The position numbers were made by a program, and so were the translations under genes. A stretch of DNA of 64,000 nucleotides, from positions 32,945 to 96,944 of the forward strand of contig MFOC01000004.1 in the NCBI GenBank assembly GCA_001782235.1, in the 5' to 3' direction. Numbering within the stretch: the stretch's first letter is position 1; every line of letters begins with the position of its first letter. Source of the DNA: Candidatus Levybacteria bacterium RIFCSPHIGHO2_02_FULL_40_18 (GTDB lineage Bacteria > Patescibacteriota > Microgenomatia > Levybacterales > GWA1-39-11). The notes beneath the pieces are model-generated. The model did no database searches. It saw only the letters and a list, made by a program, of their open reading frames with translations, and was not told where the DNA came from. Positions 1 to 47,403 of the stretch are shown piece by piece.

Positions 1-664
1 CGAAGGCTGAGGCTATTTTGTCGAGAATTTCAAATGCCGCTTCTTCGGTTTCCTTTGATACGCTCGCGCCCTCCTGATAAGTATATGCGATTAGCACATA
101 CGTATTTTGATTGATTTTAAACTCCCTAAAAGTAAAAGGAGCAAAGTTTTTTAACTTTTCAGAGCCGTATTCGGCGCTATTAAACTTAAGTATCGAGATT
201 AAAACTGGCTTTTCGCCTTGAACAATTGTTTTTGAAAAAGACGGCGAAACACCGTTTGTTACTGAAGATTCATCGGCAATACTCCAATCGGGAGGATATT
301 TAAGAGAGAATCCTTCGGCAGAATTAATGTACGTTTTCCAAGTTGTGGGGCCGGTGGCCACCGGCCCGGAGGGCCCCTGGCCCGTAGGGCAGGGAGTAAA
401 TTCACAGTTCGGTCCTGTGCGACCAACTGACGAACCATCAGGGCAGATTTTTGCCTCTTGAGTACATGCTTTCTGTTTGCTCGGATTGTTCAAAAATAAA
501 TACACTGCCGATGCGGTTCCGACTATAGCAAGAAGTATAAGCATTGCGGCGACTATTGGCAGTTTAAGTTTCGAGTTAGTTTGTTGAGGAGGGGTTTCTG
601 TTGTTTGTTCGACTGGCGAACTTTGAAATGGATCTTGATTCGGATTTTGCTTATCTTCTTCCAT
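1..664 (-). CDS. Hypothetical membrane-anchored, Cys-rich secreted protein (N-terminal part; ORF runs off the window edge)
   Basis: My manual reverse-strand translation from an ATG at 664 reads through to position 1 with no stop. It has one TM helix, then a Cys-rich region (CTQEAKICPDGSSVGRTGPNCEFTPCP) and a G/P-rich segment encoded by a GC-rich repeat. It is absent from the ORF track because it has no in-window stop. Confidence 0.4.
   Translation of the reverse strand, partial: MEEDKQNPNQDPFQSSPVEQTTETPPQQTNSKLKLPIVAAMLILLAIVGTASAVYLFLNNPSKQKACTQEAKICPDGSSVGRTGPNCEFTPCPTGQGPSGPVATGPTTWKTYINSAEGFSLKYPPDWSIADESSVTNGVSPSFSKTIVQGEKPVLISILKFNSAEYGSEKLKNFAPFTFREFKINQNTYVLIAYTYQEGASVSKETEEAAFEILDKIASAF
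345..395. repeat. GC-rich palindromic short repeat inside the minus-strand ORF 1..664
   Basis: gtggggccggtggccaccggcccggagggcccctggcccgtagggcaggg. It is in frame and encodes PTGQGPSGPVATGP on the minus strand. Confidence 0.5.
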
Positions 665-12115: not shown

Positions 12116-12470
12116 ATAGAGACTGATTTGGAAGATCGCGGTACATTTGAGGATGACAGCTAATGACACGTTCATAATTACAATTTCCTTCAAATTTTAG
12201 GGACAAATTTTTTGCCCCGTAGCAATCTCCCGAAATCACTCATTTAAAGTTCGCTCTTTAAAAATTATTGTTCAGAAAACAAGACAATCGCAAAGATTGG
12301 ATTTCTTTGGAGTTTTGTTTTTGTTGGACAAACCATAAAGTTGTTCAGATAGTGGTAGGATCTTTTTCGAACATTTTTGTTCGAGAATTTTCTTTGACAG
12401 AGTACATTTTTTTGCCAGGTACCATTCGGTACCTGACTGCAAAAATTTTGACTCCGTCAAAATTTTTTTG

Positions 12471-14066
<1,596 letters not shown>

Positions 14067-15983: not shown

Positions 15984-16055
15984 GATCCGGTGGCGAAGTG
16001 GTAACGCGGGGGTCTGCAAAACCTCTATGCGAGGGTTCGATTCCCTTCCGGATCT
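15984..16055 (+). tRNA. tRNA-Cys (GCA)
   Basis: Cloverleaf folded by hand. Acceptor GATCCGG/CCGGATC, anticodon stem GGGGT/ACCTC with loop CTGCAAA, T-arm GAGGG-TTCGATT-CCCTT, and U73 discriminator. Confidence 0.8.
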
Positions 16056-16080
16056 CAAAATTTGTTAAAATATGTAGTTC

Positions 16081-16127: not shown

Positions 16128-16373
16128 GTGATTAAATATTTTGTATATGTTTTGAGAAGCGAAGTAAATGGCCGACTCTATACTGGATCAGCCGTTGATC
16201 CGGACTTAAGACTTGAGCAACATAATACGGGTAAAAGTAAATATACAAAATCAACGCGACCATTTAAATTAGTCTACAAGGAGGAATATAATACTAGATC
16301 GGATGCGGTTCGAAGAGAAAGATTTCTGAAGACAGGAAAAGGAAGAGAGTTTTTAAAGAAAAAATTGGGGTGA
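16128..16373 (+). CDS. GIY-YIG nuclease family protein (UPF0213/YhbQ-like), paralog of 14249..14524
   Basis: YFVYVLRSEVNGRLYTGSAVDPDLRLEQHN. It has a GTG start, and its stop overlaps the first bases of tRNA-Ile. Confidence 0.7.
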   Translation: MIKYFVYVLRSEVNGRLYTGSAVDPDLRLEQHNTGKSKYTKSTRPFKLVYKEEYNTRSDAVRRERFLKTGKGREFLKKKLG

Positions 16374-16440
16374 TTGGCTCAGTGGTAGAGCGCGTTCCTG
16401 ATAAGAACGAGGTCGATGGTTCGATCCCATCATCACCCAC
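16368..16440 (+). tRNA. tRNA-Ile (GAT)
   Basis: Acceptor GGGTGAT/ATCACCC, D-arm GCTC-AGTGGTA-GAGC, anticodon stem CGTTC/GAACG with loop CTGATAA, T-arm GATGG-TTCGATC-CCATC, and A73. Confidence 0.8.
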
Positions 16441-32660: not shown

Positions 32661-33549
32661 TATTATGGGAACAGAACAAAGACCAGAACAACCAGGAGAA
32701 GAGAGGATGGCCGATCGTCCGAGAGTGATTCGGCGTCCCAATGTTCAGTTTGAGCATCATTCTTATGAGGAGTTTTCCAATAGGCCTTTCTATGTGGCAA
32801 TTGATAGATATACAGTAAGTTTTGCTCCGGTCGCTCGTAGGGTAATTGATAACGCCGCAGGAACTGGCGCTATGATTGAAAGGCTTAGCGAAGAAGAAAA
32901 GCTAGCTCCCAATTTCGAAGTCATTGCGGCAGACATTGATAGAGGAGCACTCCTTTCGATTAAAAGGAATCTTGAGCCTGTTGGGGGAAGAATTAATGTG
33001 GTGCAAGCGGATGCCTCAAGATTGCCTGTTCCCGATGGGTGGGCAGAGCTTATGATCCTTGGTAATTCAGTTCATTTATTTGAAAATCCACAAGACACGT
33101 TTGCAGAAACATATCGCACCTTGGGATCAGATGGAGTGTTGATTATAAACACAGCATACGAGAGGCTTAGAGGGTATGGAGATCAACAATCCAAAAGAAT
33201 CTTGGGCGCAATGATTTTACAGGCAAGAGGTTCTATTATTAAGAAAGGATATCCAGAAGAAATCCCTGCGCCTTTGGATTTGATGAAGCATACAGCCGGA
33301 GATTTGGTGAATATGGCAGTACAGGCAGGGTTTAGAGATGTTAGCTTTAAGACTCGACCCGTAAGAATGGACAGAGATGACATTAGAGCAATTTTTTCTT
33401 ATAGAGACTTTGCAGCTGGTGCTCTCCCTAACGTTCCATTTGAATTGGCAAAAGGCGAATTATTACCAACTGTAGATCCAAATCTTCAGAGAAGAAATAT
33501 AGATGCGCTTAATCGAAATTGGGGCATTTTAATAGCAACAAAAGTCTAG
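32650..33549 (+). CDS. Class I SAM-dependent methyltransferase
   Basis: VIDNAAGTGAMIERL (motif I) ... ADID ... VVQADASRLPVPDGWAELMI. Confidence 0.65.
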   Translation: MENSIMGTEQRPEQPGEERMADRPRVIRRPNVQFEHHSYEEFSNRPFYVAIDRYTVSFAPVARRVIDNAAGTGAMIERLSEEEKLAPNFEVIAADIDRGALLSIKRNLEPVGGRINVVQADASRLPVPDGWAELMILGNSVHLFENPQDTFAETYRTLGSDGVLIINTAYERLRGYGDQQSKRILGAMILQARGSIIKKGYPEEIPAPLDLMKHTAGDLVNMAVQAGFRDVSFKTRPVRMDRDDIRAIFSYRDFAAGALPNVPFELAKGELLPTVDPNLQRRNIDALNRNWGILIATKV

Positions 33550-34485: not shown

Positions 34486-34530
34486 TACATCGAATTATAC
34501 CATCCCCTTCGGTTAAAATTCTAAGCACGA

Positions 34531-34672
34531 AATCCTAAATTCTAAACAATATTAACTAATAGACAATGGTTGTTAGAAAATAGAAAATGGTAATGGAAAA
34601 TAGAGAATGGAAAATGGAATAGTATTGTTTCCAATTACCAATTTCTATTACTGGTATTTGTTTAGGATTTCG
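34531..34672 (+). repeat. MITE-like AT-rich hairpin repeat, copy C (with terminal inverted repeats AAATCCTAAA...TTTAGGATTT)
   Basis: aatcctaaattctaaacaatattaactaatagacaatggttgttagaaaatagaaaatggtaatggaaaatagagaatggaaaatggaatagtattgtttccaattaccaatttctattactggtatttgtttaggattt. Its exact reverse complement is at 40661..40802. Confidence 0.65.
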
Positions 34673-37758: not shown

Positions 37759-38644
37759 ATCTCTTATATTCCGTAAGTCTCAAGCCAAAGTAGCGTCCTA
37801 AAACTATATTCAGCGGCAGCAGGACAAGAATTATTTCAGGATAAAGCAATATATAGCCTCTTATAAATTCAATAGATAAAATCGCATACCCAATACTTCC
37901 CAAAAGAAGCGTAAAAAAAGTTACAACTATTGCCGGCTTTGTGCCTCTTGAGAGCTGGAGGCCCACGATTTTATCACTTAGAAGAATAAGAAGCAGCACC
38001 GGAAAGAAGGAAAGCTGGGTAATAGAGATAAGACCAAATGAAGCGCTTGTTACCAGACTGACAAACACGAAGACTGAAACTATAAGCATAGATATAGCCA
38101 TTTTTGGAAGCTGCATTATCCTGATTCGTTTAAGAATATATCTTGCAATGATCGAGGCTAAAAGTATGGTTGATAGAAGTATAGCACCGGCCTCCGGGCC
38201 TGTTGCTACCAGGGTAATTGCCAAAGCTATAGGGACGAGCATTTCAAGAGTTGGAAATCCAAGAATATTTCTCACAAATACAACCATGGTAGCAAGAAAA
38301 GGTAGAAGGAGAATTAATATAATTGTATTGGCAGGGATGCCGTTTCTCACCGCATATTGAACAAAAAAGCCCATAAAGTCGGTTAGCCCCGGGTCATTAA
38401 TTTGTCTTTTTGAGAAAAGAGCCAAGAATTCTTTCTTTGCCTTCTCCTCCTCAGGCTTTGTCAAATCTTCTTCCTTTCTTTTTTCAAGTTCCTTTTGTTG
38501 TTCTGCAGATGGGGTGGCAAGTTCTCCTGATTCGGTCGAAATTAAAGGCGTAGGCAAAACATTTATGGGTATTTGAGCAAACGACTGCCCGCTAAAGACT
38601 ACAGAGAAAGTTGCCAAGAATAATGCAAAAATCTTCCGCTTCAC
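37727..38644 (-). CDS. Polytopic membrane protein (7-8 TM) co-encoded with the ATP-grasp/protease gene
   Basis: Signal peptide, an extracytoplasmic charged segment, then ~7 hydrophobic helices. Its 3' end overlaps the ATP-grasp start. Confidence 0.5.
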   Translation of the reverse strand: MKRKIFALFLATFSVVFSGQSFAQIPINVLPTPLISTESGELATPSAEQQKELEKRKEEDLTKPEEEKAKKEFLALFSKRQINDPGLTDFMGFFVQYAVRNGIPANTIILILLLPFLATMVVFVRNILGFPTLEMLVPIALAITLVATGPEAGAILLSTILLASIIARYILKRIRIMQLPKMAISMLIVSVFVFVSLVTSASFGLISITQLSFFPVLLLILLSDKIVGLQLSRGTKPAIVVTFFTLLLGSIGYAILSIEFIRGYILLYPEIILVLLPLNIVLGRYFGLRLTEYKRFAELRRYVSQ

Positions 38645-40660: not shown

Positions 40661-40802
40661 AAATCCTAAACAAATACCAGTAATAGAAATTGGTAATTGG
40701 AAACAATACTATTCCATTTTCCATTCTCTATTTTCCATTACCATTTTCTATTTTCTAACAACCATTGTCTATTAGTTAATATTGTTTAGAATTTAGGATT
40801 TC
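40661..40802 (-). repeat. MITE-like AT-rich hairpin repeat, copy E (exact inverted copy of copy C)
   Basis: The reverse complement of 40661..40802 matches 34531..34672 base for base in my comparison. Confidence 0.65.
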
Positions 40803-42026
40803 GTGCTTCGAATTTGGGAGTGGGTGTATAATGGATTTATTATGAAAAAGGGGGTTGCCACATTTACGCTGGATCACGGAAGGTGCCCGCCATGGCTGTT
40901 TAATCGAATGGTGAATTTAGGGCGGGAGATGACTCGGGTTTTGATCGAGGAATATGGTCCTGATGAATTTGTTGAACGAATCTCAGATCCGGTTTGGTTT
41001 CAATCATTAGGTACCGTTCTCGCCTTTGATTGGAACGCATCCGGACTTACAACAATCTTGACCGCCGCGTTAAAAGAGGCGATTCGTGGGCAAGAAAGGC
41101 AATTCGGAATCTTTATTTGTGGAGGAAAGGGCGGAACTTCAAGAAAAACTCCGGATCAAATTCAATTTTGGGGAGAAAGAATCAGTCTACCGGAGAAATC
41201 AACTGAACAGTTAATTACAAACTCCAAAATGTCAGCAAAAGTTGATTCGGCCCTCGTTCAAGATGGATACACACTTTATCACCACGCGTTTTTCTTTTCA
41301 AAAAATGGCGCATGGGCGGTAGTACAGCAGGGAATGAATACTAATGCGAAGTCTGCAAGGAGATATCATTGGTTCGACAGGTTAACAACTGACAATGGAC
41401 AACTGACAACTGACAATGAAACAATCGATTTCGTAAATGAGCCGCATAAAGCGATTTCTGCACAGACTCGGCATGCAAATGTTCTAAATTTAGTCGCCGG
41501 CAAGAGTTCTAAAACTCGCGAAACTTCGGTTGATCTAATTCGCGAAGGTTATAAAAGGGTGAAAAGCGATCTTGAGCTGCTTCGTAAACATTCAAATGAA
41601 ATGTCAAAAGTGGTCGCTTTTAGTCAGGATGGGGAGGAGTATATTGCCATGGAGCTTTCTCGAAATGATTTCTTTCATCATCCGGTTGAATTAGAAAATT
41701 TTGCTAACTCTAAATATCTGGATCGAATTTTGCAGAAACTTTCGGATAGAAAGCCCGAGGACTACAAATCGCTAGTTTCATTCCAGGGGGTAGGTCCAAA
41801 GACGGTTCGTGCGCTCTCTTTAGTCTCGGAAATAATTTACGGTGCAATGCCTTCCTATATAGATCCGGCACGATATTCATTTGCCCACGGCGGAAAAGAC
41901 GCAATACCGTATCCTGTGGATCGAGAAACCTATGACAAAACAATCGAAATTATGCGAAAAGCAGTAAATCGTTCGCGCATCCCATTCACTGACAAGCAAA
42001 AAGCCCTACGCCGCCTCGCGGCGTAA
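40803..42026 (+). CDS. Hypothetical protein, DUF763-like
   Basis: 407 aa. The N-terminal GVATFTLDHGRCPPWLFNRMVNLGREMTRVLIEEYGPDEF resembles DUF763 family members as I recall them. The start may be the internal MKKG. It contains a small in-frame tandem repeat (LTTDNGQLTTDNE). Confidence 0.35.
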   Translation: MLRIWEWVYNGFIMKKGVATFTLDHGRCPPWLFNRMVNLGREMTRVLIEEYGPDEFVERISDPVWFQSLGTVLAFDWNASGLTTILTAALKEAIRGQERQFGIFICGGKGGTSRKTPDQIQFWGERISLPEKSTEQLITNSKMSAKVDSALVQDGYTLYHHAFFFSKNGAWAVVQQGMNTNAKSARRYHWFDRLTTDNGQLTTDNETIDFVNEPHKAISAQTRHANVLNLVAGKSSKTRETSVDLIREGYKRVKSDLELLRKHSNEMSKVVAFSQDGEEYIAMELSRNDFFHHPVELENFANSKYLDRILQKLSDRKPEDYKSLVSFQGVGPKTVRALSLVSEIIYGAMPSYIDPARYSFAHGGKDAIPYPVDRETYDKTIEIMRKAVNRSRIPFTDKQKALRRLAA

Positions 42027-42069: not shown

Positions 42070-42423
42070 ATGAAAACCTACGACATTCATGAAAGGATTT
42101 ATAAATTTACTGTTCGAGTAATAGTTCTAGTTAATAAACTTCCTAAAACTCCATCAAATCTTGTAATTATTACCCAAATCTTAAGGTCTGTTACATCTAT
42201 GGGAGCAAATGATCAAGAAGCAGATGGGACTTTAACAAAGAAAGACTTTATCAATAAATTTGGAATCGTCAGAAAAGAGAATAAAGAAACTAACTTTTGG
42301 TTAAGATTAATTGCTGATACTAATTCGAAGGAAATTGAAAAAGAAGCTATAGAAATCTTAGCTGAAGGAAAAGAGCTGGTTGCCATAATAAGTTCTATAT
42401 TAAACAAAACTCGAAAGAAATGA
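42070..42423 (+). CDS. Four-helix-bundle protein of the '23S rRNA intervening-sequence protein' family
   Basis: ERIYKFTVRVIVLVNKLPKT ... ITQILRSVTSMGANDQEA ... KKDFINKFGIVRKENKETNFWLRLI matches the family pattern (ExxYxF ... LPK ... QxxRS ... SIGANIAEA ... ETxYWL). Confidence 0.7.
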   Translation: MKTYDIHERIYKFTVRVIVLVNKLPKTPSNLVIITQILRSVTSMGANDQEADGTLTKKDFINKFGIVRKENKETNFWLRLIADTNSKEIEKEAIEILAEGKELVAIISSILNKTRKK

Positions 42424-42950: not shown

Positions 42951-43595
42951 GTGGAACCAAGGCTTTTAGAAAAGCTTGATAACTTTTTCTCTCAATTCAA
43001 AACTCAAAGGTATAGAAAAGGAGAAATTTTAGTTAGGGCGGGAGATTCGCCTTCGGGTATTTTTTACCTTAAGAAGGGGAGAGTTCGAGAGTACGCAATT
43101 TCAACAAAAGGAGAAGAGATTGTAGTTAATATATTTAAGCCTTCAGCGTTTTTCCCAATGTCCTGGGCAATAAACAACGCCCCAAACATATACTTCTTTG
43201 AAGCAATGGAAGATCTTGAGCTTGTTCGTGCGCCTCGTGAAGAAGTTATTGAATTTATAAAGAGAGAGCCCGAGGTTTTATACAATCTTCTTTCCCGTGT
43301 CTATATTGGTACGGACGGCCTTTTATCCCGGATGACATATCTTATGTCCGGCAGTGCTTACGAGAGGTTAGTTGCAGAGCTAATAATTGTTGCAAAACGT
43401 TTTGGAGAGAGAAATAGTAAGCAAATTACCATTGAGACGACCGAAAGAGACCTTGCGTCTCAAATAGGAATGACAAGAGAAACCGTAAGCCGTGAGATTA
43501 GAAAGCTTCGTGCCGTAGGGCTTATATCATTCGGTAAGAAAAGCCTTGTTGTAAAAGACATAAAAAGACTTGAAGAAGAGCTTCTGGCGAGTTAG
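42951..43595 (+). CDS. Crp/Fnr-family transcriptional regulator
   Basis: cNMP-binding beta-barrel (YRKGEILVRAGDSPSGIFYLKKGRVREY) and a C-terminal HTH (ERDLASQIGMTRETVSREIRKLRAVGLI). GTG start. Confidence 0.8.
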   Translation: MEPRLLEKLDNFFSQFKTQRYRKGEILVRAGDSPSGIFYLKKGRVREYAISTKGEEIVVNIFKPSAFFPMSWAINNAPNIYFFEAMEDLELVRAPREEVIEFIKREPEVLYNLLSRVYIGTDGLLSRMTYLMSGSAYERLVAELIIVAKRFGERNSKQITIETTERDLASQIGMTRETVSREIRKLRAVGLISFGKKSLVVKDIKRLEEELLAS

Positions 43596-43996
43596 ATTAC
43601 AGATTTTGTGATAGCTTCATTCGTTGAAACGATTCTATTCCTCTTTTTTAAGCTGCGAGGTAAACCCGTTGGTAAAAGATATCCCTGCCATTGTCCATCT
43701 CCTACAAATAACTCAAGATGGACAAGGTCCGTAAATTCGGGCTCTCCTTTGACTTCATACAATCTATAGTTCCCCATAGACACGATATTGCTGGTGTTAA
43801 ATTTTCGACGAGTCGAAACTAATATGTCACCAATAGAATCAGCCTTAATCCAGGCATATCTTGCTTTATCATCAAGCGTTAATATCTTTGTATGGTCAAA
43901 AGTTTCGATCACAGAATACTTACCAGTTTTTAACAATTTTATCATAGCAAGAAGATAATATCGTATTAAATCAATTAAAACATTGATTTGGATCAC
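43592..43996 (-). CDS. Hypothetical protein
   Basis: 134 aa. No motif assigned. Confidence 0.3.
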   Translation of the reverse strand: MIQINVLIDLIRYYLLAMIKLLKTGKYSVIETFDHTKILTLDDKARYAWIKADSIGDILVSTRRKFNTSNIVSMGNYRLYEVKGEPEFTDLVHLELFVGDGQWQGYLLPTGLPRSLKKRNRIVSTNEAITKSVI

Positions 43997-44140
43997 GGAA
44001 AATCCGTGACTTGGATTACTGAAAAACTACTTTTCATACACAATAATTAGATTGACAATGAAAGGGGGCGGCAGGATAAGTGCTTTTCCTCACCAAGATT
44101 TGGTGAGGGATGGAACAGATTCTACATAAGCTGAAATAGA

Positions 44141-44542
44141 ATGGGAGCAATAACCGTAAAAACAACGAAAAAAAGAGAAATAATTGACATTACGGATCGA
44201 ATCAATGACGTTCTGTCAAAGGGTGCGTTAACAATTGGCGTGTGTCACTTATTTCTTAGGCATTCAACAGCCGGCTTGACCACCGTGTACATGGATCCCG
44301 AGGCAGAGTTTGATGTATTGGATGCATTAGATACGGCGGTCGTGCACGTGATACCTCGTGAAAAATATGCCCACAGCCATTTTAAAACAAGACTTCCAAA
44401 TCACGTTATTGCTTCTTTCCTTGGATCGTCTCTCTCGATCCCATTTGAGGACAAAAAGCTTTTACTTGGTGATTTGCAAAGCGTTGCGCTTGTGGAGCTG
44501 AATGGTCCCCGCAATCGCGAAATTTTAATCTATTCAGAATGA
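44141..44542 (+). CDS. yjbQ: YjbQ/UPF0047-family protein (secondary thiamine-phosphate synthase-like)
   Basis: EIIDITDRINDVL ... HSTAGLTTVYMDPEAEFDVLDALDTAV ... HSHFKTRLPNHVIASFLGSSLSIP. Typical length and motifs. Confidence 0.8.
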   Translation: MGAITVKTTKKREIIDITDRINDVLSKGALTIGVCHLFLRHSTAGLTTVYMDPEAEFDVLDALDTAVVHVIPREKYAHSHFKTRLPNHVIASFLGSSLSIPFEDKKLLLGDLQSVALVELNGPRNREILIYSE

Positions 44543-45003
44543 AATATACAATTTCAACAAAACTATTTCGTCTCTCGGATAAAGACTATAAATATATACA
44601 AAAGCTTGCAGAAAAGCTCTTGCAATTTATTCCTTTCAAGGATTCCGATTATCCGCTACTTGAAATTGTTCTTCGAAAAAACAAGAAGAAAAGTCTTAAG
44701 GTCCAGCCGCTTCACGGACATGAAGCAGCTGATAATCCCGTGTATTATGATGGCAAATTAGACCTAATCCTTCCCAAAAAGCGCCTTGTCTCAAAGATGC
44801 TTGGTAAAACAGTGGACGAGGCCATAAAAGACGGGTTCGATGAATTATTTAGGGAACTTGAAACCTATAAAGGTTTGCATTTTGGTTCAGACAGTGAATA
44901 TTACGATCATGGAACGGTTCGCGGCCGGGCAGAGGAGTATTTTGAGACTTCAGGCCCGTTCTCCGACTCGGAGAGGGGTCTCAAGGAGTCAGAGGAGAAT
45001 TAA
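44539..45003 (+). CDS. Possible ribosome hibernation factor (HPF/RaiA-like) with acidic C-terminal tail
   Basis: N-terminal pattern MKYTISTKLFRLSDKDYKYIQKLAEKLLQFIP ... LLEIVLRK resembles the beta-alpha-beta-beta-beta-alpha HPF fold consensus. The similarity is weak. Confidence 0.35.
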   Translation: MKYTISTKLFRLSDKDYKYIQKLAEKLLQFIPFKDSDYPLLEIVLRKNKKKSLKVQPLHGHEAADNPVYYDGKLDLILPKKRLVSKMLGKTVDEAIKDGFDELFRELETYKGLHFGSDSEYYDHGTVRGRAEEYFETSGPFSDSERGLKESEEN

Positions 45004-45879
45004 ATGAGCATTAGCGAGAGGATAAATATTCTTAAAAAGTTCAAAAACCTTACTTATCCTATTTTGACTATTTACTTAAGTTTTTTGGGATCAAAAACCC
45101 CTAGCACGAGCGAGTTAAAAAGGCAATTTCATTCCCTTATGACTCAAAATTTAACAGCGCGAGAGAAGAAGCACTTCGGAAATACCATCCAAAGCATTGA
45201 TGATTATTTTGATGAAACTTACGATAGCCGGGGGAAGAGAAGCGTTGCTTTTTTTGGCAACGGACAACGGCCCGGCCTCCGCCCAGAGGGCTCTGGCCCG
45301 GCGGGAGGGGCGTCTGGCCCGGAGGGCGGGCTATTTGAGATTTTAGAATTTGAATTTCCAATCGCGCCTTTGTGTCGTATCTCAAATTCTGTTTTTCTTG
45401 ATCCGATAACCTCAGCGCTCTTAGAACATAAAAGATATTTAGTACTTCTCATCGATAGGGAAAAAACAAGGCTATTCACTGTTCATTTAGGAGAAATCAA
45501 AGAGCATGAGGATGTATTTATAAATATTGTTCCTCAAAAAGTTAGAGCAGATGAAGAGCATTTTTATGGGAGGAGCGACAAAATTTTCCGGCATACTGAA
45601 GATCATTTAAATCGGCACCTTAGGCTTGTTGCTGAAAAGGCACGGGAATTTATGAAAGGCAAAAGAATTAATTTTATTATTCTCGGTGGACATGAAGAAT
45701 TGTTCGAGAAGATGAAGAGACATTTACGCAAGGACATAAGAGATAAAATCGCGGGCGAATTTGTCACGGAACTCAATGTTCCAATAAACAGCGTGTATCT
45801 TGCAAGTAAAAAAATAGCAAAGCACATAGAACAAGATAAGGTCTATGCGGAGATGGAGTCGTCATTGGCAGGGGTATGA
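45004..45879 (+). CDS. Hypothetical protein, possibly eRF1/Pelota-like (bacterial 'host-attachment/baeRF' type). Contains an in-frame GC-rich repeat insert
   Basis: VLLIDREKTRLFTVHLGEIKE ... FIILGGHEELFEKMKRHL is reminiscent of baeRF-family proteins. The assignment is from memory only. Residues GQRPGLRPEGSGPAGGASGPEGG are encoded by the GC-rich repeat at 45262..45335. Confidence 0.3.
   Translation: MSISERINILKKFKNLTYPILTIYLSFLGSKTPSTSELKRQFHSLMTQNLTAREKKHFGNTIQSIDDYFDETYDSRGKRSVAFFGNGQRPGLRPEGSGPAGGASGPEGGLFEILEFEFPIAPLCRISNSVFLDPITSALLEHKRYLVLLIDREKTRLFTVHLGEIKEHEDVFINIVPQKVRADEEHFYGRSDKIFRHTEDHLNRHLRLVAEKAREFMKGKRINFIILGGHEELFEKMKRHLRKDIRDKIAGEFVTELNVPINSVYLASKKIAKHIEQDKVYAEMESSLAGV
45262..45335. 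repeat. GC-rich palindromic short repeat (two tandem units) inside the ORF 45004..45879
   Basis: ggcccggcctccgcccagagggctctggcccggcgggaggggcgtctggcccggagggcggg. Confidence 0.5.
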
Positions 45880-46118
45880 AAATGATGCGCGATATAACAT
45901 TAATTGAACAAATGGAACTGAGATTAGCGGGCATTGCGCGGCCCTATGAATTGGATGCGAAGCTATCCAAAAGGGAGGTGGAGTATTTTGAGAGGCATTG
46001 AAACATTAGATTACGAAATCCAAGGGTTCATGGAATTTGGAGACAATCTTTCTGAATATGGCATATGGAAAGAACAGGTCCAGATGGATGCAATTCGACT
46101 ACCTAAAAGAATAGGCAA

Positions 46119-46709
46119 ATGGGAATCGGGTCAATTAACAGAATTAACAAGACCATGACAGATCAGGAAAAAGCAATATATCTATCATACCTTAATATCA
46201 GGCAAAGTATATCTATACTCCTTCTCAAGCTTGTCTCCGTAGATGTCTTAAGTGCATTTTTTATTATTATTTCTTATTTTGCGCTTATCCAAGGACGCGA
46301 ACTGTTGGGCTTTGATCTTACTAATATTCCTTCCTTCGTGATTATTTTTGGGATCCTGGGAACGTTAAAAATCCTTACAACAAGCTATATAGTTTTGCTT
46401 TGGTTAAATGAATATTATGAGATCACGCCCGAGGCAATAATTCACAAAAGCGGAATTATTTTTAAGAAAGAGGAGAAATATAGCCTTAATAATGTTCGAG
46501 CTATGAACATTTCAGAGAATTTTATTGGAGAGATATTGAATTGCGGGACAATAACGATTTATGATATGTATATGCGAGAGTACCTTTCCCTCTATCTTAT
46601 CCATAACCCTGTAAGATATATACGTGTACTTGAAACTTTAAAACCTAATATCGAAATCAAAAAACAAGAAACAATTGTGCCATTAGTTAAGCCAACGGAG
46701 GTAAGGTAA
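46119..46709 (+). CDS. Membrane protein with bacterial PH-like (DUF304/bPH_2) domain
   Basis: Two TM helices, then YYEITPEAIIHKSGIIFKKEEKYSLNNVRAMNISENFIGEILNCGTITIY, typical of YdbS/YdbT-type bPH domains. Confidence 0.55.
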   Translation: MGIGSINRINKTMTDQEKAIYLSYLNIRQSISILLLKLVSVDVLSAFFIIISYFALIQGRELLGFDLTNIPSFVIIFGILGTLKILTTSYIVLLWLNEYYEITPEAIIHKSGIIFKKEEKYSLNNVRAMNISENFIGEILNCGTITIYDMYMREYLSLYLIHNPVRYIRVLETLKPNIEIKKQETIVPLVKPTEVR

Positions 46710-46716
46710 ACAATTA

Positions 46717-47403
46717 ATGAAAAATGAGGCTATGAATAACCGTGAAACACGCGAACAGGAACCAATAAGGACGAATTGGGTTGTTATAACAGGCCCACCT
46801 AGTTCGGGGAAAACAACGACACTCAAGGATTTAATGGAGAAACTGCAAGCTCAGAATTACTCTCAGGTTGAAGAGCAGGCAAGAAAGCTTATAGAGGAGG
46901 ATAAAAAAAGAGGAGTGCAAAGATTTGGAGATAGGACTTATGAAATCAATCTTAATAATAGAGTTTTGTCGGAAAGAGAAAGAATTGAAGCTTCTTTGCC
47001 GAAGGATTCCAGCATACTAATGGACAGGGGAACGCCCGATGTAGTTTCCTACATGAGATATTACGACCAGAATGAACAAGCTGCTATCGAAGCGTCCAAA
47101 AAATTCAGATACGCCAAGGTTTTTTATCTTGAGCCGCTTGTTTCGTACGAGCAGGACGTAACAAGAGTAGAGAATCCCGAGTTTGCAAAATGGATGCACG
47201 AGAATTTACCAAAAGTATATGAGGAGTTGGGGTATGAGATTGTTCGGGTACCTGTTTTTCCATATAGTGAGAGAACTTACGAATCAGAAGAAGAGAAGAG
47301 AAAAGACTCGCTAGGCCAGCGGTCAAAATTTATTATGGAGAAAATAAGTGAAGGCCTCCGGCCCTTGAGGGCCTCTGGCCCGGAGGGAGGTGGGAGAGAA
47401 TGA
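46717..47403 (+). CDS. P-loop NTPase (AAA_28-like predicted ATPase/kinase) with a GC-repeat-encoded C-terminal tail
   Basis: Walker A VVITGPPSSGKTT and Walker B-like ILMDRG. The last ~17 aa (EGLRPLRASGPEGGGRE) are encoded by the GC-rich repeat. Confidence 0.55.
   Translation: MKNEAMNNRETREQEPIRTNWVVITGPPSSGKTTTLKDLMEKLQAQNYSQVEEQARKLIEEDKKRGVQRFGDRTYEINLNNRVLSERERIEASLPKDSSILMDRGTPDVVSYMRYYDQNEQAAIEASKKFRYAKVFYLEPLVSYEQDVTRVENPEFAKWMHENLPKVYEELGYEIVRVPVFPYSERTYESEEEKRKDSLGQRSKFIMEKISEGLRPLRASGPEGGGRE
47353..47398. repeat. GC-rich palindromic short repeat at the 3' end of the ORF 46717..47403
   Basis: gaaggcctccggcccttgagggcctctggcccggagggaggtggg. Confidence 0.5.

Follow-up and report, generated by a model that had tools for sequence, protein, structure and literature searches.

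In a 64-kb stretch of DNA (64,000 nucleotides (nt), hereafter the window; positions 32,945 to 96,944 of contig MFOC01000004.1) from Candidatus Levybacteria bacterium RIFCSPHIGHO2_02_FULL_40_18, a member of the Candidate Phyla Radiation (CPR), two adjacent genes were found to encode a divergent homologue of the ribosome-hibernation factors HPF/RaiA and a two-domain relative of Balon. These genes are referred to as open reading frame 2 (ORF2) and ORF3, and the gene 5' of them, yjbQ, as ORF1. The comparisons given below establish how the genes are arranged, that both proteins are homologous to these factors, which domains they contain and that their adjacency is conserved. It is probable, on our analysis, that ORF2 and ORF3 act as a ribosome-hibernation pair, by which the decoding centre and the A site would be occupied non-catalytically and without EF-Tu. 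If so, two proteins so far "hypothetical" in a CPR genome would become a recognisable ribosome-hibernation pair that is conserved across Microgenomates. Organisms of this group have pared-down, atypical ribosomes, and dormancy is likely to matter in their episymbiotic lifestyle. The adjacency of HPF and baeRF-1 genes (2019) and that of RaiA and Balon genes (2024) have already been published, and the known picture is unchanged by the window locus, which is a CPR version of it. The features that set this version apart are, as read from its sequence, the strong divergence of its RaiA and the presence of only two domains in its Balon relative.

Identity of ORF2 and ORF3

A preliminary description of the window had placed three close or overlapping same-strand ORFs at this locus, and the ORF list gave identical coordinates, all on the + strand: ORF1 (44141..44542, 133 amino acids (aa)), ORF2 (44539..45003, 154 aa) and ORF3 (45004..45879, 291 aa). 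In the window sequence ORF1 and ORF2 share 4 nt (ATGA), the ORF2 stop codon TAA abuts the ORF3 ATG with zero gap, and a GGAG lies 8 nt 5' of that ATG. ORF1 was correctly recognised as the UPF0047 protein YjbQ, with both curated cut-offs exceeded (PF01894, E 7.5e-24, 84.6 bits, cut-off 27; TIGR00149, E 1.3e-24, 86.4 bits, cut-off 67.75). ORF2 has 18 close and ~105 distant homologues, the N-termini of which align with its own N-terminus, and ORF3 has 74 homologues. Judged by these matches, all three are genuine genes and not chance ORFs. Elsewhere in the 64-kb window no further gene of HPF-like or Balon-like type was found.

ORF2 is 100% identical to NCBI protein A3C30_01665 (P0001). As a single sequence it scored 12.9 bits (E 0.19) against PF02482 (Ribosomal_S30AE), below the gathering cut-off of 23.7, with the sub-threshold match covering positions 2-84 of the 88 in the profile; an NCBIfam scan of ORF2 gave no match. 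All 18 close homologues came from CPR sources, and one had been annotated as RaiA by the Joint Genome Institute (JGI). The profile made from these 18 sequences gave nothing meaningful against the PDB and a weak result in hhalign (E 0.009, probability 4%), and so proved insufficient; a wide family alignment was therefore needed. When the 18-sequence profile was searched against 1.84 billion representative proteins, 105 relatives were obtained. The family profile used from here on (A5) comprised 98 sequences, with the window protein as its first row.

Searched against the PDB, A5 matched 24 distinct solved HPF/RaiA/YfiA/pY chains (E 1.2e-9 to 1.5e-3), and the matches spanned the whole domain, from residue 1 to ~91. 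The best was HPF of V. cholerae (4hei_A, 1.2e-9), with E. coli HPF at 3.1e-8 and the RaiA of P. urativorans that was solved on the same ribosome as Balon (8rd8_D) at 2.3e-6. Alignment of the ORF2 family to E. coli HPF and RaiA in hhalign, for which the E. coli sequences were entered by hand, gave 96.6% probability (E 6.4e-10). PF02482 itself was matched by 46 of the 98 family members (E <=0.01, best 2.2e-12). An insertion between strands beta2 and beta3 is absent from the shorter relatives, several of which lie above the PF02482 cut-off: P0120 (25.1 bits), P0133 (27.8 bits) and P0195 (29.2 bits), which the ORF2-family profile matched at 7.8e-23, 1.5e-16 and 1.7e-4, respectively.

By its family profile, ORF2 is a divergent short HPF/RaiA homologue, recognisable only at that level. 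The assignment of its N-terminus to HPF/RaiA was thus borne out; the link to PF02482 holds at the family-profile level and fails for the single sequence. With HPF/RaiA (YfiA, pY; PF02482) the protein shares the profile alignment over HPF residues 1-91 and a basic core (aa 1-113, isoelectric point 9.4). It corresponds to the short form, as the C-terminal dimerisation domain of long, 100S-forming HPF was not found in ORF2, nor was any second Pfam domain. It differs from HPF/RaiA in its sub-threshold Pfam score, in the basic beta2-beta3 insertion of ~15-25 aa and in an acidic C-terminal tail of ~40 aa that is poorly conserved and predicted to be disordered.

For ORF3, the best match was PF18854 (baeRF_family10; E 2.6e-19, 70.4 bits, cut-off 27.1), and other baeRF families reached at most 27 bits, under their own cut-offs. 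The baeRF-1 clade was defined by Burroughs and Aravind in 2019, and several of its families neighbour HPF (PMC6514570). That paper also describes one distinctive baeRF-1 family in which the N domain is retained and the C domain is gone; a name for that family was not found in the text available. The 74 homologues of ORF3 included 71 of CPR type, with lengths of 218-291 aa. When the ORF3 family profile was searched against the PDB, the matches were Balon MSMEG_1130 (3.1e-8), archaeal aRF1 (3e-5) and Balon of P. urativorans (1.2e-3), all of which covered the N and middle domains only (residues 21-236 of 375 in the Balon chain). The AlphaFold2 (AF2) model of ORF3 was confident (predicted local distance difference test (pLDDT) 86.5, predicted template modelling score (pTM) 0.70) and ends at the last middle-domain helix. 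In a Foldseek search of the PDB with this model, the top five matches were all ribosome-bound Balon (E 3.3e-13 to 1e-10, template modelling (TM) score 0.56-0.63), followed by aRF1/eRF1 (TM ~0.4; 4af1, E 3.8e-10) and Pelota (E ~1e-3, TM ~0.3).

By profile and predicted structure, then, ORF3 is a member of baeRF-1 family 10 (PF18854), and its closest structural relative is Balon. That it is a bacterial eRF1-like protein, as first proposed, agrees with the 70-bit PF18854 score and with the ribosome-bound Balon structures being closest. The "host-attachment" family PF10116, which had been named for it, gave no match at E up to 1; the family is baeRF_family10. The Pfam models eRF1_1/2/3 did not match ORF3; aRF1 was matched by the family profile (3e-5), and aRF1/eRF1 by the fold. 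Structural modelling, which had also been proposed, was informative for the Balon-like ORF3 and poor for ORF2 (pLDDT 63).

All characteristics of family 10 that were compared are shared by ORF3, namely the score, a conserved loop glutamine and the HPF neighbourhood, and no contrary feature was seen; the window protein alone carries a 21-aa Gly/Pro-rich insertion. With aRF1/eRF1 and Pelota/Dom34, ORF3 has in common the fold of the N and middle domains, but it lacks GGQ, NIKS and a C domain for a translational GTPase. It is, moreover, a bacterial protein, and one that does not take the place of RF1/RF2.

Conserved adjacency and proposed function

Related loci were scanned by using one genome per species, which gave 30 loci, 20 of them Microgenomates-type with enough upstream sequence. 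A RaiA-like gene was located just 5' of the family 10 gene in 18 of these 20. The two genes are directly adjacent in 17 loci, mostly with a 4-nt overlap, and in the eighteenth (L023) a gene for protein-L-isoaspartate O-methyltransferase (PCMT) stands between them. The pair accordingly recurs across genomes, as the preliminary description had proposed to check, and its further remark that a reduced genome would be an unusual place for such a module finds no support, given that the pair is common in Microgenomates (18 Microgenomates-type genomes) and that growth of a cultured Saccharibacterium has been reported to require RaiA (PMC11665869). The records of nine loci (L005, L006, L007, L012, L013, L016, L024, L025 and L028) are titled "uncultured Gammaproteobacteria bacterium". 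These titles look like mislabels, because the RaiA-like/baeRF10 pair in these loci is of CPR type and 40-58% identical to the Levybacteria protein.

The interpretation of the locus as a translation-stress module agrees with the published associations of HPF with baeRF-1 (PMC6514570) and of RaiA with Balon (PMC10901736). Balon, itself a baeRF-1 member, is a hibernation factor characterised by cryo-EM that binds the A site together with RaiA (Helena-Bueno et al., PMC10901736). It has neither NIKS nor GGQ, its C domain touches EF-Tu(GDP), and its gene mostly adjoins raiA (PMC10901736). Both idle and translating ribosomes are bound by it. The Balon proteins of P. urativorans, M. smegmatis (Msmeg1130) and M. 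tuberculosis (Rv2629) share with ORF3 the aeRF1-like N and middle domains, the lack of NIKS/GGQ and a gene adjoining that for RaiA/HPF; the ORF3 relatives also have Hsp20-type stress neighbours, a setting that has been described for Balon (PMC10901736). They differ in that ORF3 is ~100 residues shorter and has an invariant VPQ, and in that family 10 was found, in this analysis, in CPR lineages only.

In the mechanism that we propose, the placement of both proteins rests on homology: ORF2 would lie on the 30S subunit, covering the mRNA channel together with the A and P tRNA sites, and ORF3 would fill the ribosomal A site and bring its N domain close to the decoding centre. The middle-domain loop of ORF3 (VPQ and a basic R-H helix) would point toward 23S rRNA at the peptidyl-transferase centre, and the protein would bind the ribosome without the contact that Balon makes with EF-Tu(GDP). 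Translational coupling of the two genes may supply ORF2 and ORF3 in a fixed ratio. Together they would keep ribosomes inactive and protected in starvation or stress, in the manner of RaiA and Balon on Psychrobacter ribosomes. The stress-type genes that recur near the pair, Hsp20 in 4 loci and PCMT either separate or fused to the RaiA-like gene, speak for this reading. Ribosome binding, the non-catalytic mode and regulation are the parts of this scheme that we infer.

It might be argued that the adjacency is functionally meaningless or that the two proteins work elsewhere than on the ribosome, for instance in defence or in the manner of a toxin-antitoxin pair. Both are known here from genes alone, and the diversification of baeRF-1 has been argued to be driven by biological conflicts (PMC6514570). 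This explanation nevertheless appears very improbable, as the pair with overlapping stop and start codons is kept in at least 17 species-level genomes at 40-66% identity, homologues of both proteins have been solved on ribosomes, none of ORF1, ORF2 and ORF3 has a PADLOC match, and no mobile-element genes lie beside the pair. An anti-phage defence role was considered separately and was rejected because PADLOC returned no match for the three genes.

A second alternative keeps the pair on the ribosome and makes ORF3 a catalytic release or rescue factor, the VPQ glutamine of which would hydrolyse peptidyl-tRNA independently of a GTPase before a RaiA-like partner parks the emptied ribosome. The motif VPQ(K/R/N)V is invariant in the CPR homologues (71 of 71; Q178 in the window protein) and is situated in the loop that bears GGQ in eRF1. 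A conserved basic, R-H-rich helix follows the glutamine at a tightly constrained distance of 16-19 residues, and conservation within the family is far higher in the middle domain than in the N domain; all of these would be expected to favour catalysis. Against it, neither GGQ nor NIKS occurs in any of the 71 homologues, so that none has Gly-Gly before the Gln and NIKS-type stop-codon recognition is missing, the NIKS position being aligned with "QNLT" in ORF3. In hidden Markov model (HMM) alignments the Q of VPQ aligns with the "VPG" of aRF1, which precedes the real GGQ by seven residues, and the PQ of VPQ aligns with the "APQ" of Msmeg1130 Balon, a protein described as GGQ-less with its catalytic centre left inert (PMC10901736). 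The conserved partner, moreover, is a hibernation factor and no rescue component. Catalytic release by ORF3 is thus considered unlikely, and non-catalytic hibernation by the pair is preferred.

Several observations weigh against the preferred reading of a non-catalytic hibernation pair. On the side of ORF3, both the AF2 model and the profile coverage indicate that the C-terminal domain, which binds EF-Tu in Balon, is missing, and ORF3 therefore cannot use Balon's EF-Tu(GDP) contact. Scores against the three NCBIfam Balon-type models (MSMEG_1130, AOC03_06830 and Rv2629) were 20.1-20.7 bits, where the cut-offs are 320-480. Balon contacts A1492 and A1913 through an HP motif of its N domain. The "EHP" position of P. 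urativorans Balon, which may be this motif, is TP, SP or AP in ORF3 relatives and HP once; in the window protein "GSKTPSTS" aligns with "...THREHPAND..." of that Balon. Lacking the C domain, a clear HP motif and scores above the NCBIfam cut-offs, ORF3 is Balon-like and not a Balon equivalog. The tight spacing between the glutamine and the R-H helix counts in the same direction, as does the fact that family 10 was singled out for its retained glutamine and as possibly catalytic (PMC6514570). Ribosome binding by family 10 proteins is argued from homology. On the side of ORF2, the AF2 model built the expected fourth strand of the beta-alpha-beta-beta-beta-alpha fold as a helix, and the Foldseek matches, 13 of the best 14 of which were HPF/YfiA/pY, were non-significant (E 4e-3 or worse, TM 0.2-0.37); structure was therefore not relied on for this protein. 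Finally, a RaiA-like neighbour is missing at the Saccharibacteria-type family 10 loci, as it also is at two non-CPR outgroup loci.

The same features would make ORF3 useful. As a Balon relative without a C domain, it offers a natural test of whether A-site hibernation factors need the EF-Tu contact, and it also offers a test of catalysis by the family 10 glutamine. A detached C domain encoded by a small downstream ORF was considered and rejected, neither the 41-aa ORF (45876-46001) nor the 74-aa ORF (45934-46158) being conserved in 31 related loci. The first of these, the ATG of which overlaps the ORF3 stop codon (ATGA), is probably spurious.

Neighbouring genes and candidate regulation

The preliminary description had counted YjbQ as part of the module. 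In its favour, the ATGA overlap joins yjbQ to ORF2 in the window, and the two are on this ground probably co-transcribed. In L004 the Balon-like gene is also followed directly by a YjbQ gene, and in L006, L013 and L025 one is found within 4 kb. A nutrient-limitation regulator, SutA, is encoded on the same transcript as yjbQ in Pseudomonas (10.64898/2026.06.26.734693). These observations could be read as marking YjbQ, ORF2 and ORF3 as a single functional unit in which the YjbQ enzyme acts in ribosome stress. The wider comparison speaks otherwise: of 30 related loci, only 4 have a YjbQ gene within 4 kb of the pair, with its position and strand varying among them, and the remaining 26 neighbourhoods are without one. 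No fusion and no fixed gene order ties YjbQ to the pair, and its biochemistry is described in the literature as having "no clear function". A single three-gene unit is therefore regarded as improbable, and yjbQ appears to be a passenger of the hibernation pair and no conserved part of the module.

Besides YjbQ, the neighbours that recurred near the pair among the 30 loci were a Crp/Fnr homologue (11 loci), Hsp20 (4), a 134-aa protein (4) and AAA_28 (2). In the window the Crp/Fnr-family regulator is encoded at 42951..43595 on the + strand (PF00027, PF13545; weak matches to NtcA, Fnr and CRP models). The 134-aa protein is encoded convergently on the - strand (43592..43996), overlapping the end of the Crp-like gene, and gave no Pfam, NCBIfam or PADLOC match. 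The Crp/Fnr homologues of the 11 loci lie within ~2.5 kb of the Balon-like gene; they stand upstream of the pair together with the 134-aa homologue in L010, L014, L023 and L028, and lack this partner in the other seven. The Crp/Fnr-type regulator may be regarded as a candidate controller of the pair.

A perfect 9-bp inverted repeat, CCTCACCAA-GAT-TTGGTGAGG (CCTCACCAAGATTTGGTGAGG), was located at 44088..44108, 33 nt upstream of yjbQ. Its predicted folding energy (dG) is -9.0 kcal/mol (z -3.9) and no T-run follows, and it could be an operator or a hairpin in the 5' untranslated region. A second inverted repeat, TCACGGA-AAA-TCCGTGA (43995-44011), is also present in the region upstream of yjbQ. 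The related loci were also searched for an operator palindrome conserved 5' of the pair, and the idea was rejected, as none was common to them; CRP/FNR-like palindromes were seen in L007 and L027 and are unlike the window hairpin at 44088..44108.

In four representative proteins (P0093, P0103, P0142 and P0147) the RaiA-like domain is fused to PCMT, a further difference of some ORF2 relatives from HPF/RaiA. In L031 (4001-5161; P0093) the RaiA-PCMT fusion gene and the baeRF_family10 gene share 4 nt, and a bPH_2 gene follows, and in L023 (2845-4732) the gene order is Hsp20, RaiA-like, separate PCMT and baeRF10. These arrangements suggest a connection between isoaspartyl repair and ribosome hibernation. 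No fusion to PCMT is mentioned in a preprint of 2025 that deals with HPF fusions (10.1101/2025.11.04.686544). A more far-reaching scheme may also be considered, in which family 10 would be a minimal GTPase-independent A-site factor that releases the nascent chain through VPQ and then enters hibernation with RaiA, as part of a combined rescue, storage and repair system in bacteria whose genomes are reduced. We regard this as quite unlikely; were it true, protein repair would reach the stored ribosome through the RaiA-PCMT fusion in some Microgenomates.

On the 3' side of ORF3, the window encodes a bPH_2 membrane protein (46119..46709, + strand; PF03703, E 1.3e-8). A gene of this type neighbours the pair in one other locus only (L031), where it comes directly after the baeRF_family10 gene.

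The ORF3 insertion and other features of the window

The 21-aa insertion of ORF3, RPGLRPEGSGPAGGASGPEGG (aa 89-109), is encoded by an in-frame GC-rich segment of 63 nt (45268..45330, + strand). In the AF2 model it sits in an N-domain loop and is predicted to be disordered (pLDDT 50-58). The insertion is missing from all 33 aligned ORF3 homologues and present in the 99%-identical P0019; since that protein comes from other assemblies, the insertion is not an assembly artefact. The DNA is predicted to form a hairpin (dG -25.4 kcal/mol, z -2.6), and it is a copy of a repeat family (D4) with other copies at 355-392, 38187-38200 (-) and 47369-47390. A GC-rich, hairpin-capable repeat of ~21 nt, GGGC.TCTGGCCCGGAGGG.GG, is scattered through the 40%-GC window (355-392, 38187-38200 (-), 45268-45330 and 47353-47390), with 6 matches where 0.16 were expected by chance. 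One copy is the insertion in ORF3, and another encodes the C-terminal tail (…SGPEGGGRE) of an AAA_28 ORF (46717-47403).

Further features were recorded in other parts of the window. These include an L10 leader (2741-2882), a complete 16S rRNA gene (12464-14045), tRNA-Cys (15984-16056) and tRNA-Ile (16368-16440), as well as a free-standing gene for a "23S rRNA intervening sequence protein" (42070-42423; PF05635) that lies outside any rRNA gene. Two 155-nt inverted repeats with 99% complementarity (34516-34670 and 40661-40815) bracket ~6 kb of sequence, in which genes for a glucose/sorbosone dehydrogenase, a cupredoxin, an ATP-grasp protein, a 7TM_transglut protein and a weakly bactofilin-like protein are found. 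The arms of these repeats contain an A/T-rich TAGAAAATGGAAAAT-like motif with 14-nt periodicity, which also occurs in intergenic sequence at ~3463, 20615 and 35796.

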